DNA of 64,000 bases from a bacterium (GCA_965216315.1 CBDCFN010000016.1:2144001-2208000); one strand, 5' to 3'; positions 17,605-61,967 are shown, numbered from the stretch's first letter. The notes: generated by a model not told the origin, from the letters alone. A program made the numbers and translations.

Positions 17605-17631
17605 TTATCGGCGGAAATGCGGAAAAGTTCA
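17605..17631 (-). promoter_or_regulatory. Array promoter motif (sigma28-like)
   Basis: TGAACTT-ttccgcatttcc-GCCGATAA. Confidence 0.8.
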
Positions 17632-17678
17632 CAAAAAGTTAAATGATTTCAAATATTTAGTATTCAGTTGAATACAAG

Positions 17679-17727
17679 AAATCCCCTCGGATCCCTCCCT
17701 TTGAGAAAGGGAGGCTAGGAGGGATTT
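17679..17727. repeat. REP-like palindromic element overlapping the stop of gene 3
   Basis: cctccctttgagaaagggagg core hairpin with outer aaatccc/gggattt arms. Confidence 0.7.
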
Positions 17728-19400
17728 TTTAAAGCCAGTCTGAAACTCCGTAACTGCAAGAGCCGGACGGTGAGTCGCGCGCCTTCATTTTTCATGAAGG
17801 CGCGCTGCTCGGAGTTGAGATGGGACGGATGGATAAACTGATAACCGCCAGCGGGATTATCTTGGACGAGGCCCAAGGAACGTCCTTTATGTTCGAGTCG
17901 ACGCCGGACGCGCAAAAACTCGATCCGGGCATGGCGAGACATGAATCGTTTAAACGCCTTCATGTTACTAATCGTCCCTTTCGGGCTGATCATTTTAGTG
18001 ATATCATCGGCATCGCTGGCGTCGGGATGAAAGCCGGTATATTCCTTCACGAGTTCATACGCGCGTTTGATGTTTTTCTTGTTTTTGTCGTCTTGATAAA
18101 ATTCGCGCACCGAACGACGCACACCCTTCCAATCGATGGCCCATACGCCATTTTCGTTGCGCGTATTCTTCATGACAAGCGCGGTTAAATTCTGCCGCAT
18201 CGAGTCGCCAAACTGTTGGGACGCTTTGGTGAGTTTGTTTTGGATGCGGTCGAGATTCGCGTCGTAGTTCTTTTCGTAAGAACTGGAGACAGCCGATGCA
18301 ACCGTATCAATAGCGGTAATGAACATGCCGAAGGCGCTCGCCAAGAAACGACCGCCGTGCATCTCACTCCCCCGCTCCTGCAAATAGATCTGTTGACTCA
18401 AGCGGATCAGATCCCACTGGCGCCGTTCATCTCCTTTGAAAGCCAAACGACTGACGGCCCACAGCGCCCCGCGCGCCCCGAGATCAATCAAGCCAATCCA
18501 ACCGAGGGCCCGGGTCAAAACCGCGCCAACACGTAAGACCGCCGCCCCGCGCGAGGCTTGCAAGGCCGCCGAGGATTTAATTCCGAGGGCATGCGCCATC
18601 GTCGGCGAGACGGCGGCCAAGGCATAGGGCATCGAAGCCAGCGTCAGGCCGGCAAACTGGGTCACGGGAGAATTCAAATCCATGCCAGCCTTTTCCAACA
18701 GAAAATAAGACAACAACTGAAAGCCGTAGAAGGTCGGCATGTGCGCGAGCATCGCGCGCGGTCCCGTCGCGAAGACACCCAACTGATGCAATGCCATCGA
18801 CGCGAGATACACGCTGCCGAAAAGGGCCGGGATGCGCGCCTCTTCAGGGAGGAGGCCGTTGTCAATGAGGGACTTCAGTACAAAATGGTCATAGGCAACG
18901 ATAATACCCGCCGCCCCAACCATCCCGATGGTCAGACTCATCGGACTCGGGGGTCGAATCCCGGATGAGGCACCTGAAGGTCCCCCACCTGCGCTCCCCG
19001 GCCCACATTCAAGCGGTGTACTCTTAAAGAAATGAAAACGCGGCACCGTCACCCCTTCGGCCGTCACGGCCTGGGTCACCCGAAACGAGATCGGCAATTT
19101 TTGCGTAACGGCGAGTTGATAAAGACCGTGCAGATGGGGGCGTACTGAGGGCGGCAACTTCTTATAAAAATGCGTCAGGGAAAGGTCTTGATTCAGCGGC
19201 ACGGGCGTTGCCCCGCCGACGTACCAAAGCTCATTGGCAAAGAGTGAGATGGGATTGCGACGAAGAGGCGCGGCCGCCGGCGTATCGACTGAATTATAAT
19301 GATCAAGTCCGGGCGTACCGCCGCCGCAAGTCATCGACTCCCATTTGATTGTCGCTGCCGCGGCAGCGGACACACCGGACACCATACACACCGCACCCAT
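17715..19400 (-). CDS. Array gene 3: family A protein (561 aa, Lys-rich)
   Basis: Start set at MGAVCM (GGAGG RBS); SFRVTQAVTAEGVTVP, LPEEARIP, MPTFYGFQ, WAIDW, EYTG, LNSEQRAF. Confidence 0.9.
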   Translation of the reverse strand: MGAVCMVSGVSAAAAATIKWESMTCGGGTPGLDHYNSVDTPAAAPLRRNPISLFANELWYVGGATPVPLNQDLSLTHFYKKLPPSVRPHLHGLYQLAVTQKLPISFRVTQAVTAEGVTVPRFHFFKSTPLECGPGSAGGGPSGASSGIRPPSPMSLTIGMVGAAGIIVAYDHFVLKSLIDNGLLPEEARIPALFGSVYLASMALHQLGVFATGPRAMLAHMPTFYGFQLLSYFLLEKAGMDLNSPVTQFAGLTLASMPYALAAVSPTMAHALGIKSSAALQASRGAAVLRVGAVLTRALGWIGLIDLGARGALWAVSRLAFKGDERRQWDLIRLSQQIYLQERGSEMHGGRFLASAFGMFITAIDTVASAVSSSYEKNYDANLDRIQNKLTKASQQFGDSMRQNLTALVMKNTRNENGVWAIDWKGVRRSVREFYQDDKNKKNIKRAYELVKEYTGFHPDASDADDITKMISPKGTISNMKAFKRFMSRHARIEFLRVRRRLEHKGRSLGLVQDNPAGGYQFIHPSHLNSEQRAFMKNEGARLTVRLLQLRSFRLALKNPS

Positions 19401-19443
19401 GAGCACCTCCATTTGTTTCGCACCTAATGGGCTGACTATTTAG

Positions 19444-19470
19444 TTATCGGCGGAAAATCGCGGAAGTTCT
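19444..19470 (-). promoter_or_regulatory. Array promoter motif (sigma28-like)
   Basis: AGAACTT-ccgcgattttcc-GCCGATAA. Confidence 0.8.
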
Positions 19471-60800: not shown

Positions 60801-61756
60801 CACTCGACTTGACGGATACGGACGGCGACGGCGACGGCAATCCTTGTGATACCGACGATGACGACGACGGTGTCCTTGACGGCGCCGACAACTGCCCGTT
60901 CGCCGCCAATCCGGGCCAGGAAGATACCGACATGGATGGTATCGGTGACATCTGCGATAGCGGCGATGTGGTCGGAGTGACCGACACGGATGGCGACGGT
61001 GTCGACGATCCGGACGACAACTGTGTCCAGACCCCCAATGCGGATCAAACCGATTCGGATGATGATGGCAGCGGGGATGCCTGCGATATCGATAGCGCAA
61101 CAGCAAGCGATATCGACGGCGACGGACACAATAACGACGTCGACAACTGTGCCCAAATTGCCAACCCGGGCCAGGAAGACAGCGATGGCGACGGCGTCGG
61201 CGATGTCTGTGAAGGAAATCTGGCCGTAAGTGGCACGGATAGTGATGGCGACGGACTTACCGATGAAGTCGAAATCAACGTCACATTTACAGATCCGAAT
61301 GATACGGACTCCGATGATGACGGCATCAACGATCTGGATGAAGTCACGAGCTTCTCCGATCCTAACCATGCCGACATCGACGACGACGATATCTGCGACG
61401 GCATCATTGCCCTCGAGGGAATCTGTAACAGCGGCCCGGACAACTGCCCCTTGGTCACCAATCCCGACCAGGTTGACAGCGACGGCAATGGTGTCGGCGA
61501 TGTCTGCGAAGGCGATGCGGACGGCGACGGTGTCCCCAACGAAGGCGACAACTGTCCTATCGTCAGCAACGACAACCAAGCGGACGATGACCAAGACGGC
61601 ATCGGTAATGCCTGCGACACCAGCCCAGGCAGCCTCTCCTCCGGTGGAGGTTGTAGCTTGAGCCCGAGTGCTGCGAGCCACACTCCGACCGTACTTTGGC
61701 TGATGCTACTCGCTGTAGGAGCCCTACTCGGCTTTCGCAGAGATGCCGCTAAGTAA
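57890..61756 (+). CDS. Thrombospondin type-3 (Ca-binding) repeat surface protein with MYXO-CTERM-like sorting tail (1288 aa)
   Basis: Signal peptide ending ANA; many DNCP...N.GQ.D.D.DG.GD.CD repeats; C-terminus SGGGCSL...LWLMLLAVGALLGFRR. Confidence 0.93.
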   Translation: MMRIKIITSLFVTLTSLTFIGQANAAWSEYFCDIINGSASALNSAINHYNASGDDRMCKKGIRFKEAQHIALPDGISITQSPPSGETYGVAIRRCSTSEINCPDLSDTAVKLDFSDYTNDNGDCPIKVSNGAKIDILNLQITVPNKDRAICTASGDPIALEDQSNDYAWIHNVTIIQSTPVDPHDDCSAADNPDEPDSDNDGEIDSCDDDDDNDGVTDDEDQCPNEAGTVILKGCPEANWCLDMSTGDVLPKEGVDTDGDGLDDACDNCDDQDSDGVCSDVDNCPDDANHDQTDTDGDLDGDACDDDDDDDGVLDGDDNCPLDVNAGQEDTDEDGLGDECDDDDSTGDSDSDGICDGAIAIGTFCDAGPDNCIDDPNPGQEDADGDTIGDVCDPDDDNDGIVDAVDNCPLDANFDQTNTDGLPDGGDACDADDDEDGVPDVGDDCPLDALDSVDTDGDGLCDNAEGVLGTSPVNPDTDGDDYCDGPNIVLAFCSNPNDNCPIDANPGQEDGDLDGIGDACDEVPALPDADGDLIPDVIDNCPGVASLDLTDTDLDGLGNICDPDNDNDTILDDGDGSLVEGDNTCVGGNTVACDDNCPLIANAGQEDADNDGIGDVCDFGGGGFVDSDLDGIQDAIDNCPLTPSLDLTDTDLDGQGDVCDPDNDNDTILDDGDGSLIEGDAPCVGGNVVACDDNCPFIANPLQADADADGIGDACDFGLIDADGDLIPDAVDNCPALPSLDLNDTDLDGQGNPCDPDDDGDGVLDGVDNCPFTANPGQEDADIDGTGDVCDFDGGVVDTDGDLIPDSIDNCPAVPSLDLADTDMDGQGNPCDTDDDGDGVLDGVDNCPLTPNPGQEDTDTDGTGDVCDVDGGGGGFDDDDGDGIPNVFDNCPAVPSTDLNDTDNDGLGNPCDDDDDGDGVLDGVDNCPFVSNAGQADADIDGIGDACDTGADDDDSDGIPNAVDNCPNEASLDLTDTDGDGDGNPCDTDDDDDGVLDGADNCPFAANPGQEDTDMDGIGDICDSGDVVGVTDTDGDGVDDPDDNCVQTPNADQTDSDDDGSGDACDIDSATASDIDGDGHNNDVDNCAQIANPGQEDSDGDGVGDVCEGNLAVSGTDSDGDGLTDEVEINVTFTDPNDTDSDDDGINDLDEVTSFSDPNHADIDDDDICDGIIALEGICNSGPDNCPLVTNPDQVDSDGNGVGDVCEGDADGDGVPNEGDNCPIVSNDNQADDDQDGIGNACDTSPGSLSSGGGCSLSPSAASHTPTVLWLMLLAVGALLGFRRDAAK

Positions 61757-61781
61757 AGACGCTAAATAGATTGAAATTATC

Positions 61782-61822
61782 CCCCCGTGAGATAAGGAAT
61801 TATCTCACGGGGGTTTTATTTT
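61782..61822 (+). terminator. Intrinsic terminator
   Basis: cccccgtgagataa-ggaa-ttatctcacggggg followed by ttttatttt. Confidence 0.85.
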
Positions 61823-61940
61823 CGAAGAAAGTTGCAAATCTAATACCTTCGGCTTTAGCTCTTTGATTTTATTAATTAATTCGCCTATTCCGAAATGAGG
61901 AGTGTTTGCATCAATCTCACGATAATTCCCGCTGTTACTA

Positions 61941-61967
61941 GCAACTTTTTGTAAACCCACCCGATAA
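61941..61967 (+). promoter_or_regulatory. Array promoter motif (sigma28-like), plus strand
   Basis: GCAACTT-tttgtaaaccca-CCCGATAA, oriented toward the ATG at 62055. Confidence 0.8.

Follow-up and report, generated by a model that had tools for sequence, protein, structure and literature searches.

A GCAAC/CCGATAA promoter-type motif of a candidate phylum and its probable reader, a FliA paralog of a type III secretion cluster

Motif copies in a 64-kb gene array

We analysed a window of 64 kb (C16:2144001-2208000, where C16 is contig CBDCFN010000016.1) in a 2.96-Mb genome, 98.3% complete, of an uncultured candidate bacterial phylum. The window, by which we mean this whole stretch, holds a minus-strand array containing three families of paralogous genes (families A, B and C) and, beyond it, two plus-strand genes for large repeat proteins. 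A two-box motif, GCAACTT and CCGATAA at a fixed distance, lies upstream of many of these genes (Table 1). The motif is very probably a promoter. As judged from sequence comparisons, it is probably the promoter of one alternative sigma factor, a FliA paralog that is encoded in a type III secretion cluster of the same genome and whose region 4.2 specificity would have changed.

The initial annotation of the window had listed 18 copies of the motif, all intergenic, directed to the downstream gene and with one spacing. The exact pattern GCAACTT-N13-CCGATAA matched eight times in the window, against 0.00 expected from 100 shuffles, and when up to two mismatches were allowed, 18 matches were found against 0.35 expected and a shuffle maximum of two. 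These 18 matches comprised 17 of the annotated sites and one site at 20191(+), which lies within a gene and is chance-like. The remaining annotated site, 45875(-), reads GAAACCTTTCGGTAAAGTCGGCGATAA and has three mismatches, yet it falls within the relaxed consensus with a position weight matrix (PWM) score of 19.3. All 18 annotated sites were located between open reading frames (ORFs), were aimed at the downstream ORF and shared a single spacing (11 nt in the PWM, corresponding to N12+N in the plain pattern), as had been described. The -10 box CCGATAA was exact in 16 of the 18 copies, the remaining two being GCGATAA and CCGATAC. Three weaker copies that were not on the original list were also recognized, one of them on the minus strand and two on the plus strand (listed as extra in Table 1). 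It had further been stated that no copy was seen before housekeeping genes, and this held in the left part of the window, where none was found upstream of the genes for transketolase, glutamate racemase, a CtpA-type protease and TolQ/R/A/B in the left 13 kb. The 17 minus-strand copies serve 22 genes, five of which trail a neighbour and have no copy of their own (13525-15171, 29814-31727, 37585-40305, 41731-42591 and 53158-55242).

The promoters of family B carry an additional element. In all five of them, a box TGCGAATTTnCC (TGC[GA]AATTTnCC) is placed immediately upstream of GCAAC; this box and TTCGCAA in the spacer make up an imperfect inverted repeat that surrounds the -35 box. The palindrome TTGCGAA-N13-TTCGCAA had no exact copy genome-wide, and TGC[GA]AA-N6-GCAAC gave nine genome matches, five of which are the family-B promoters. 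This upstream box may reflect shared ancestry or may be a family-specific operator, outside the promoter class proper.

Table 1. Positions of the motif copies, family-B upstream boxes and gene families within the window (exact, the pattern GCAACTT-N13-CCGATAA)
Feature	Position	Strand	Downstream genes and remarks	PWM score
Extra copy, 13-nt spacer	3495..3523	+	Upstream of orphan gene 3588-5303	18.1
Promoter copy, TGAAC -35 variant	17605..17631	-	Upstream of family-A gene 15181-17580, with 13525-15171 behind	16.4
Promoter copy, AGAAC -35 variant	19444..19470	-	Upstream of family-A gene 17715-19412	17.5
Promoter copy	20725..20751	-	Upstream of orphan gene 19562-20674 (C-terminal RRRRG tail); exact	26.3
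Promoter copy	22787..22813	-	Upstream of family-A gene 20778-22751	24.3
Promoter copy	24870..24896	-	Upstream of family-A gene 22855-24825	
Promoter copy	26835..26861	-	Upstream of family-A gene 24960-26786	
Promoter copy	29638..29664	-	Upstream of family-A gene 26903-29608; exact	
Promoter copy	33300..33326	-	Upstream of family-B gene 31864-33195, then family-A gene 29814-31727 without own copy; exact	
Promoter copy	34901..34927	-	Upstream of family-B gene 33434-34756; exact	
Promoter copy	36161..36187	-	Upstream of family-B gene 35101-36090; exact	
Promoter copy	37483..37509	-	Upstream of family-B gene 36319-37422	
Promoter copy	41651..41677	-	Upstream of family-B gene 40333-41613, with orphan 37585-40305 28 nt behind; exact	
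Promoter copy, GAAAC	43328..43354	-	Upstream of family-C genes 42525-43322 and 41731-42591	
Weaker promoter copy, GAAAC ... GGCGATAA	45875..45901	-	Upstream of FHA-domain family-C gene 43393-45831	19.3
Promoter copy	49385..49411	-	Upstream of AAA-domain family-C gene 45908-49303	
Extra weak copy, 13-nt spacer	49511..49539	-	Intergenic region shared with the 49385 copy	17.0
Promoter copy, -10 CCGATAC	53023..53049	-	Upstream of family-C gene 49563-52937	
Promoter copy	57489..57515	-	Upstream of 55360-57381 (C-terminus ...GLNF), with 53158-55242 behind; exact	
Extra weak copy, good -35, poor -10 GACGACGA	57812..57838	+	Upstream of thrombospondin-type-3-repeat gene 57890-61756	16.4
Promoter copy	61941..61967	+	Upstream of thrombospondin-type-3-repeat gene 62007-63998, open at window end; exact	
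Family-B upstream boxes	33322-33338, 34923-34939, 36183-36199, 37505-37521, 41673-41689	-	Immediately upstream of GCAAC	
Family A, eight paralogous orphan genes	13525..31727	-	548-901 aa, 22-40% identical, hydrophobic middle	
Family B, five paralogous orphan genes	31864..41613	-	N-terminal 210-aa Cys-bearing domain, 53-73% identical, start MGC/MTC	
Family C, six genes	41731..55242	-	Common C-terminal module of about 90 aa; five with Arg-rich tail	

A genome- and phylum-wide class in the sigma-28 register

A two-block PWM was iterated on intergenic matches, built from 276 sites and used with a working threshold of 14. Genome-wide, 243 sites scoring at least 14 were directed to a gene and 12 were convergent, and the numbers at a score of at least 16 were 214 and 7. 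The two orientations are thus unequal; equal occurrence in both orientations and inside genes had been named in the initial annotation as one outcome that would contradict it. A motif was found for 240 of the 1393 genes having an upstream gap of at least 40 nt, that is, in about 17% of upstream regions. AAC-N15-CCGATA matched the genome 82 times, 50 times between genes and directed to one of them and once convergently. Each of the spacings N8-N14 and N18-N20 gave 16-37 matches, of which only 0-3 were gene-directed, and N16 and N17 gave 51 and 30 matches with 21 and 17 gene-directed, so that N15 is a sharp optimum. The resulting consensus is [G/A]CAACTTT, a spacer of 11 nt (sometimes 12-13 nt) and nCCGATAA, and some 8-10 nt before the -35 box there is an A/T-rich patch. 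The AAC of the -35 box [G/A]CAAC is invariant or nearly so (272-276 of 276 sites), and the counts in the -10 box over the same sites were C 262, G 275, A 275, T 207, A 206 and A 214. Site density on the large contig ranged from 0 to 9 per 50 kb, and the bin with most of this window had 17. One sigma factor had been proposed to control the whole array; the motif, however, is not specific to the array and marks a genome-wide class of about 240 promoters.

The classic sigma-28 promoter is TAAAGTTT-N11-GCCGATAA. In the fliC promoter of Pseudomonas aeruginosa (PMC12784957), the boxes are (-36)TCTAAAG(-30) and (-15)GCCGATAA(-8). The registers of the two promoters match, with GCAAC-N15-CCGATAA here and TAAAG-N15-CCGATAA in P. 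aeruginosa. The motif has the -10 box and the inter-box distance of a sigma-28 promoter and lacks the -35 sequence TAAA(G)/TTAAG, the core GCAAC differing from TAAAG at three of five bases. The canonical form TAAA-N15-GCCGATAA matched the genome once, within a gene and on the opposite strand.

Sigma-28 promoters start transcription about 7-8 nt after the -10 box, and the position of start codons gives an indirect hint of the start here. Among listed sequencing runs, the stretch was found in four DNA-type contig runs of one study and in no RNA run. ORFs of at least 80 aa began 5-10 nt past the last A of the motif at 102 of 344 sites with a score of at least 16, mostly with ATG, and the start-codon counts at 5 to 10 nt were 9, 16, 28, 8, 23 and 18, whereas other positions from 0 to 40 nt had 0-6 each. 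Since such close starts leave no room for a ribosome-binding site, they fit leaderless messages that start 6-8 nt past the -10 box. The pile-up would thus be a sign of transcription start 6-8 nt after CCGATAA, as sigma-28 geometry predicts, and polymerase carrying the candidate sigma factor would begin at this distance from the last A of the box. The window copies are 5-144 nt away from the longest ORF. Unlike the close-start sites, they have leaders of about 20-140 nt, which mostly carry GGAG-type (Shine-Dalgarno-like) ribosome-binding sites. As a separate observation, one gene at C16:684962-689938 has seven near-identical internal repeats, each with a chance-like match to the motif, ACAACTGTCCGGCCGATCCGGCGAAGA.

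The survey of the phylum covered 93 genomes; sigma factors, including those of the extracytoplasmic function (ECF) type, were searched as proteins in 41 relatives, and synteny was compared in 45 related public contigs. The core GCAAC-N15-CCGATAA was present in 93 of 93 genomes with 2-66 copies each, whereas a reversed control gave 0-2. The FliA-like sigma factor described below was found in 41 of 41 genomes with 52-81% identity. An SctV/FlhA homologue was found in 91 of the 93 genomes and flagellin in 11. The motif is therefore co-distributed with the sigma factor and with the secretion cluster, and the system, which had been called lineage-specific, is so only in the sense that the lineage is the whole candidate phylum.

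A FliA paralog in a type III secretion cluster and its recognition helix

The genome encodes five sigma-70-family proteins, namely RpoD, RpoH, one FliA-like protein and two ECF sigma factors (ECF1 and ECF2). The best family of the FliA-like protein was TIGR02479, which was matched end to end (positions 1-222 of 224). The protein has the three-domain build of group 3 (regions 2, 3 and 4) and aligned over its full length with WhiG and with FliA of P. aeruginosa and Escherichia coli. Region 4 alone matched E. coli FliA best (E 6e-7), whereas an ECF chain reached just E 0.28, which indicates that region 4 as a whole is FliA-like and is not an import from an ECF sigma factor. The non-canonical -35 box pointed out at the outset is thus real, but the likeness to ECF promoters gives way to an exact sigma-28 register and a region 4 that is FliA-like, not ECF-like.

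The sigma gene sits within a type III secretion cluster (C16:337670-362000). The cluster encodes, in order, SctV, two YscD-type FHA proteins, TPR proteins, SctJ, two small ORFs, the sigma factor, a small ORF, a weak FliG-like protein, SctL, SctN, SctO, a FliK/HpaP (SctP)-like protein, FliM/FliN-like proteins (SctQ parts), FliO, FliP and FliR. With core export genes and without flagellum-specific genes, it is of the non-flagellar type. Flagellin, rod or hook domains and the FlgM family were not found in this genome at its 98.3% completeness. No secretin was present among the 38 ORFs of the cluster, the two secretin matches of the genome being elsewhere (C16:974670 and C16:16707), and no needle-subunit family was matched in the cluster. 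The 162-aa gene that follows the sigma gene was seen again in 20 of 45 related loci and by eye has a rod- or needle-type look, and the 119-aa ORF preceding the sigma gene had no counterpart in the 45 loci. A cluster that combines FliG-like, FliO and FliK-like proteins and a FliA paralog and has no secretin may be an intermediate between flagellum and injectisome.

The cluster itself carries the motif. Weaker copies with a long spacer are found some 220 nt ahead of sctV, ahead of the gene block that precedes sctJ and ahead of the sigma operon, the last of them at C16:349487 in front of the two small ORFs and the sigma gene. Just beyond the cluster there is one strong copy. The genome-wide scan that had been suggested for secretion and flagellin genes outlined a putative regulon and revealed weaker copies in the secretion cluster, while its flagellin part does not apply, since there is no flagellin here. 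The arrangement is conserved among relatives. Of the 39 loci that extend far enough downstream, 38 have the fliG-like gene and sctL after the sigma gene. SctJ lies upstream of it in 28 of 38 loci, and a same-strand motif is found upstream of it in 29 of 38 loci, mostly about 0.9-1.5 kb away and mostly with a 13-nt spacer; opposite-strand matches upstream of the sigma gene totalled seven. The motif at the sigma gene reads as conserved autoregulation, putatively from a deliberately sub-optimal promoter.

The recognition helix of region 4.2 reads LSKSWTSRLHARAL in this sigma factor and SESRVSQLHSQAL in canonical FliA, with six positions different. Canonical FliA and WhiG chains contain (T/S)ESRVSQ(I/L)H, which the candidate sigma factor lacks. 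Across 45 loci its helix has the form LSKSW[TV]SRLH[AVS]R[AGS]L in all but one, which is a partial, divergent match. In the open complex of P. aeruginosa (PMC12784957), Q228 contacts -36T and -35G, and S224 contacts -34 and -35. The P. aeruginosa residue numbers were matched via D66, Y76, I79, R82 and R97, with a chain offset of five residues; by this alignment S224 is kept in the candidate sigma factor and Q228 is replaced by Arg. For the -10 box, the candidate sigma factor retains the residues matching D66 and R97 and has Phe in place of Y76. A second change from Gln to Arg (HSQAL to HARAL) occurs at the position aligned with sigma-70 K593, under a Taq-to-E. coli numbering that we take to be correct. 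The equivalences Taq K418/sigma-E R176 and Q414/S172 are given in PMC1540707, in which R176 of sigma-E reads the G preceding nAAC and the residue is conserved in all group IV sigma factors. It is plausible that an ECF-like Arg faces an ECF-like G-n-AAC box, which would provide a possible mechanism for the altered specificity. The postulate of a group-3 sigma factor with altered region 4 has thus found a candidate, a single FliA-like sigma factor whose helix is changed at a predicted -35-contact residue and is fixed phylum-wide. All of the in-silico tests that were run agree with this postulate.

The flagellated members of the phylum provide a natural contrast. A second FliA-like match was found in six of the 41 relatives. 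In four flagellated members (G022, G029, G031 and G032), the second FliA is located beside a second, higher-scoring flhA and has the canonical helix, ITESRVSQIHSQ or LTEARVSQIHAA (ESRVSQIH type); the second copy in the non-flagellated G039 is of the SKSW type. In 13 flagellin upstream regions taken from 11 flagellated genomes, T[ACT]AAGnTT-N11-12-TCCGT occurred in eight, at 70-100 nt from the gene, whereas 500 shuffles gave a mean of 0.006 and a largest value of 1. No GCAAC-type site was found in these 13 upstream regions, where the best PWM score was 8.9 against the threshold of 14. The flagellin upstream regions and the helices of the paralogs together indicate that the canonical helix pairs with a TAAAG-type -35 box and the altered helix with GCAAC. 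The -10 boxes differ as well (CCGTyn and CCGATA), and this difference would keep the two regulons apart.

Competing explanations, target genes and related systems

The motif could be taken for an ECF (group 4) promoter, since its -35 AAC, its -10 CG and the distance of about 16 nt between them are ECF hallmarks and the genome encodes two ECF sigma factors. GCAACTT is also similar to GGAACTT, the -35 box of sigma-E, and AAC is a conserved motif among group IV sigma factors (PMC1540707). The phyletic pattern speaks against such a reader: ECF1 was detected in 17 and ECF2 in 26 of the 41 relatives, and the 14 genomes that match neither keep 7-52 exact copies of the motif core. ECF sigma factors usually autoregulate, but neither ECF gene has a motif copy upstream, and the full -10 box CCGATAA is that of sigma-28, so that we regard an ECF reader as very improbable. 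Slightly better placed, but still improbable, is the possibility that the FliA-like sigma factor reads the -10 box alone with region 4.2 specificity unchanged and that GCAAC is a separate activator or repressor site. This would agree with the E. coli sigma-28 complex, in which no base-specific -35 contacts were seen as reported in PMC12784957, with the extra upstream box on the five family-B copies and with the presence of three DUF4423 regulator genes in the regulon. However, the spacing between GCAAC and the -10 box is rigid across some 200 sites and throughout the 93 genomes, and GCAAC occupies exactly the -35 register of sigma-28. A dispensable region 4 would not explain why the helix was changed and then frozen, and the canonical paralog accompanies a canonical -35 box.

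The great abundance of the motif, in about 17% of upstream regions, would suit the housekeeping (RpoD) or heat-shock (RpoH) promoter of the phylum, and both sigma factors are present. The upstream regions of groESL and dnaK, however, contain TTGACA-N17-TAtAtT-type promoters, with a CIRCE-like repeat at groESL, and no gene-directed motif copy, and TTGAC-N17-19-TAnnnT is itself enriched at gene-directed intergenic positions (58 vs 10). Moreover, the targets are poor in known families and include hardly any information-processing genes, and the housekeeping genes of the window are motif-free; an RpoD or RpoH promoter is therefore scarcely credible. We give as little credence to the view that the window copies are remnants of tandem gene duplication that are not independently maintained. 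Three paralog families do fill the array, and the family-B copies share flanking sequence. Yet the array paralogs are 22-73% identical as proteins, whereas the boxes are near-invariant: among the 18 copies, the spacers had a mean pairwise identity of 0.38 and the 30 nt that follow the motif one of 0.28, so that conservation is concentrated in the two boxes. In addition, unrelated genes in and beyond the window have the same boxes.

Several points weigh against the FliA paralog as the reader of the motif. Its score of 133.5 bits is below the NCBIfam cut-off for TIGR02479 (189.6 bits), and the argument from contact residues transfers the numbering of the P. aeruginosa structure by sequence alignment. 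The ECF test consisted of two protein queries at E<=1e-10 and covers just these two ECF sigma factors. RpoH and RpoD are presumably universal too, so that the phyletic argument excludes ECF sigma factors alone, and RpoD and RpoH were set aside by consensus alone. AAGTTT-N11-TCCGTY was not above the reversed control genome-wide, even in flagellated genomes, and the contrast between the two helix types thus draws on the 13 flagellin upstream regions only. Gene calls were crude, being the longest non-overlapping ORFs, and seven of the 102 close-start sites are the internal repeats of one gene at C16:684962-689938. With these points taken into account, we still infer that the FliA paralog is the probable reader. 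In that case, the only FliA-family sigma factor of the genome would recognise a GCAAC-type -35 box with a CCGATAA -10 box and would drive about 240 transcription units, 17 to 21 of them inside the window, where nearly every array paralog has its own copy.

The putative regulon is rich in unfamiliar proteins. No Pfam family (E<=1e-5) was found for 73 of the 104 best-scoring targets outside the window, compared with 35 of 104 motif-free neighbouring genes. Most targets that could be named belong to the envelope, are secreted, or act in signalling or degradation, among them M23, S8 and SLT enzymes, proteins with LysM, LamG and CAP domains, an alpha-2-macroglobulin, a patatin and FGE-sulfatase-like proteins; further targets include GGDEF proteins, a hybrid kinase, the three DUF4423 regulators and a few metabolic enzymes. 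Information-processing genes are hardly represented, and the motif-free control set includes RF-2, UvrB, Lnt and pseudouridine synthases. A motif copy also lies upstream of a gene for a 1428-aa protein at C16:1746009. The motif thus offers a handle, in sequence alone, on about a tenth of the genes, most of them without a known family, that can be searched in 93 genomes, and it would mark these genes as one co-regulated programme.

With the seven repeat sites left out, about 95 close-start genes remain (for example C15:54907, C15:154657, C16:282671, C16:1291638, C16:1092300 and C16:776485). Their products are mostly unrelated to one another, and their N-termini are nearly free of charge: residues 2-25 contain 1.3% D, 1.0% E, 1.5% K and 2.4% R, compared with 3.7, 4.5, 5.9 and 6.0% in all ORFs. 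A box [LVMI][LVI][AC][SATG][SGTAN] (e.g. LLASS) ends the N-terminus at residues 17-31 in 26 of the 95, whereas the box was counted 51 times among all 2447 ORFs and 12 times among 15733 internal-Met controls. Both a basic n-region and a lipobox Cys are absent from these N-termini. The charge-free N-terminus with its box may be a new export or processing signal. In two other genomes, nine of 40 exact-consensus sites had a start codon 5-10 nt on, and the N-termini were low in charge and showed no clear LLAS box.

A broader scheme can be drawn from these data, although we consider it unlikely to hold in full. In this scheme the regulatory logic of the flagellum would have outlived the flagellum itself. 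A duplicated FliA with re-tuned -35 and -10 preferences would be the master switch of a flagellum-derived type III machine without secretin, and the regulon of about 240 promoters would be largely its cargo, including the three orphan families and the approximately 95 leaderless genes with the new N-terminal signal. Secretion would control the activity of the sigma factor, in the way that FlgM gates FliA.

The nearest known systems in architecture are the class 3 flagellar promoters and FliA of E. coli, Salmonella and P. aeruginosa. These promoters share with the motif the -10 box, the inter-box distance and the T-run after the -35 core; here, in contrast, three of the five -35 core bases and six helix positions differ, no FlgM was found and the targets are non-flagellar. 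HrpL and the hrp box offer another parallel, in which an alternative sigma factor is encoded with a type III system and its promoter precedes many scattered, fast-evolving genes, as seen here. HrpL is an ECF sigma factor, however, and its -10 box differs from that of the motif. It is named among the group IV sigma factors in PMC1540707. In function, the FliA attack-phase regulon of Bdellovibrio bacteriovorus comes nearest, in which TTAAG-N16-CCGATA was found in 92 of 140 mapped attack-phase promoters (Karunker et al. 2013, PMC3627812). In both cases a sigma-28-type promoter has been recruited far beyond flagella, in Bdellovibrio to surface proteins, proteases and many uncharacterised genes. 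Bdellovibrio is flagellated, its FliA is also flagellar and the -35 box is canonical, whereas the present genome has no flagellin or rod genes, a paralog in a secretion cluster and GCAAC. Chlamydia trachomatis similarly keeps a FliA-type sigma factor as a non-flagellated bacterium with type III secretion, but its sigma-28 regulon comprises two genes (hctB and tsp) by chromatin immunoprecipitation sequencing (ChIP-seq), according to PMC12282069; the class described here numbers about 240 promoters, and its candidate sigma factor is encoded within the secretion cluster.

As regards the cluster, the 'Myxo' non-flagellar type III systems (Abby and Rocha 2012, PMC3459982) are alike in being derived from the flagellum, in having no flagellin, rod or hook genes and in having no secretin in the cluster. 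FliE/G are listed there among the proteins that they lack, whereas a weak fliG-like gene, fliO, a fliK-like gene and the FliA paralog are all present in the cluster described here; the term 'sigma' was not matched in that paper by the literature search. At the level of titles and the beginnings of abstracts, and with few subscription journals covered, the matches listed included no prior account of this promoter type or of a sigma factor inside such a cluster, and by title none of the papers on UBA10199 dealt with transcription. The promoter departs from sigma-28 promoters in one feature, the -35 box, and the sigma factor departs from FliA in the family cut-off, the canonical helix and flagellar targets with FlgM. 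Two sigma-28 paralogs within one phylum, a few helix residues apart and associated with GCAAC and TAAAG, constitute a natural experiment on sigma specificity. The fixation of a FliA paralog in a type III cluster without secretin bears on the origin of the injectisome from flagella and suggests that the sigma-28 checkpoint was carried along.

The array genes are themselves unusual. Pfam gave nothing for 17 of the 24 window proteins tested, and its seven hits were two FHA domains in family C (one below the Pfam cut-off), one AAA ATPase in the same family and two families in each of the two thrombospondin-type-3-repeat proteins. Besides the three families and the repeat proteins, the window contains singletons. 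An unrelated orphan gene (19562-20674) falls inside the span of family A, and the orphan 37585-40305 is placed among the family-B genes. A search at E<=1e-8 did not find family B in any of the other 92 genomes surveyed, and in a protein atlas the family had no usable match, while family A scored 0.81 or less. A model of the family-B domain (pLDDT 70.5, pTM 0.58) matched no solved fold at E<=0.001. The array genes are thus fast-evolving and private to their lineage, and each appears to be wired separately to the same putative sigma factor.

Some features of the encoded proteins may be added. Family-B proteins start with MGC, MTC or MASC, and several family-A proteins with MC, MTDQC or MNC; they have conserved cysteines and no signal peptide. 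N-terminal Gly-Cys resembles the lipidation motifs of some injected effectors. Arg-rich tails (...ERRRRGI, ...RRRRGR, ...ERRRSGR, ...DERRRGR, ...RLRRGR and ...RRRDRAR) are found on six otherwise different proteins, encoded by 19562-20674, 41731-42591, 42525-43322, 43393-45831, 45908-49303 and 53158-55242. Five of them have, ahead of the tail, the conserved module of about 90 aa (LPAEARLS...PLLRDG...), of which the product of 49563-52937 contains several repeats. The two plus-strand genes 57890-61756 and 62007-63998 encode large secreted proteins with thrombospondin type 3 (calcium-binding) repeats, and PF02412 had 18 matched stretches in the first. Near the left end of the window, 1768-3469 contains a gene for an MbnB/TglH/ChrH-type enzyme that modifies precursors of ribosomally synthesized and post-translationally modified peptides (PF05114, E 2.5e-101), and a DUF2063 gene comes after it. 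The pair, which has no relation to the motif, may be a locus for a peptide natural product.

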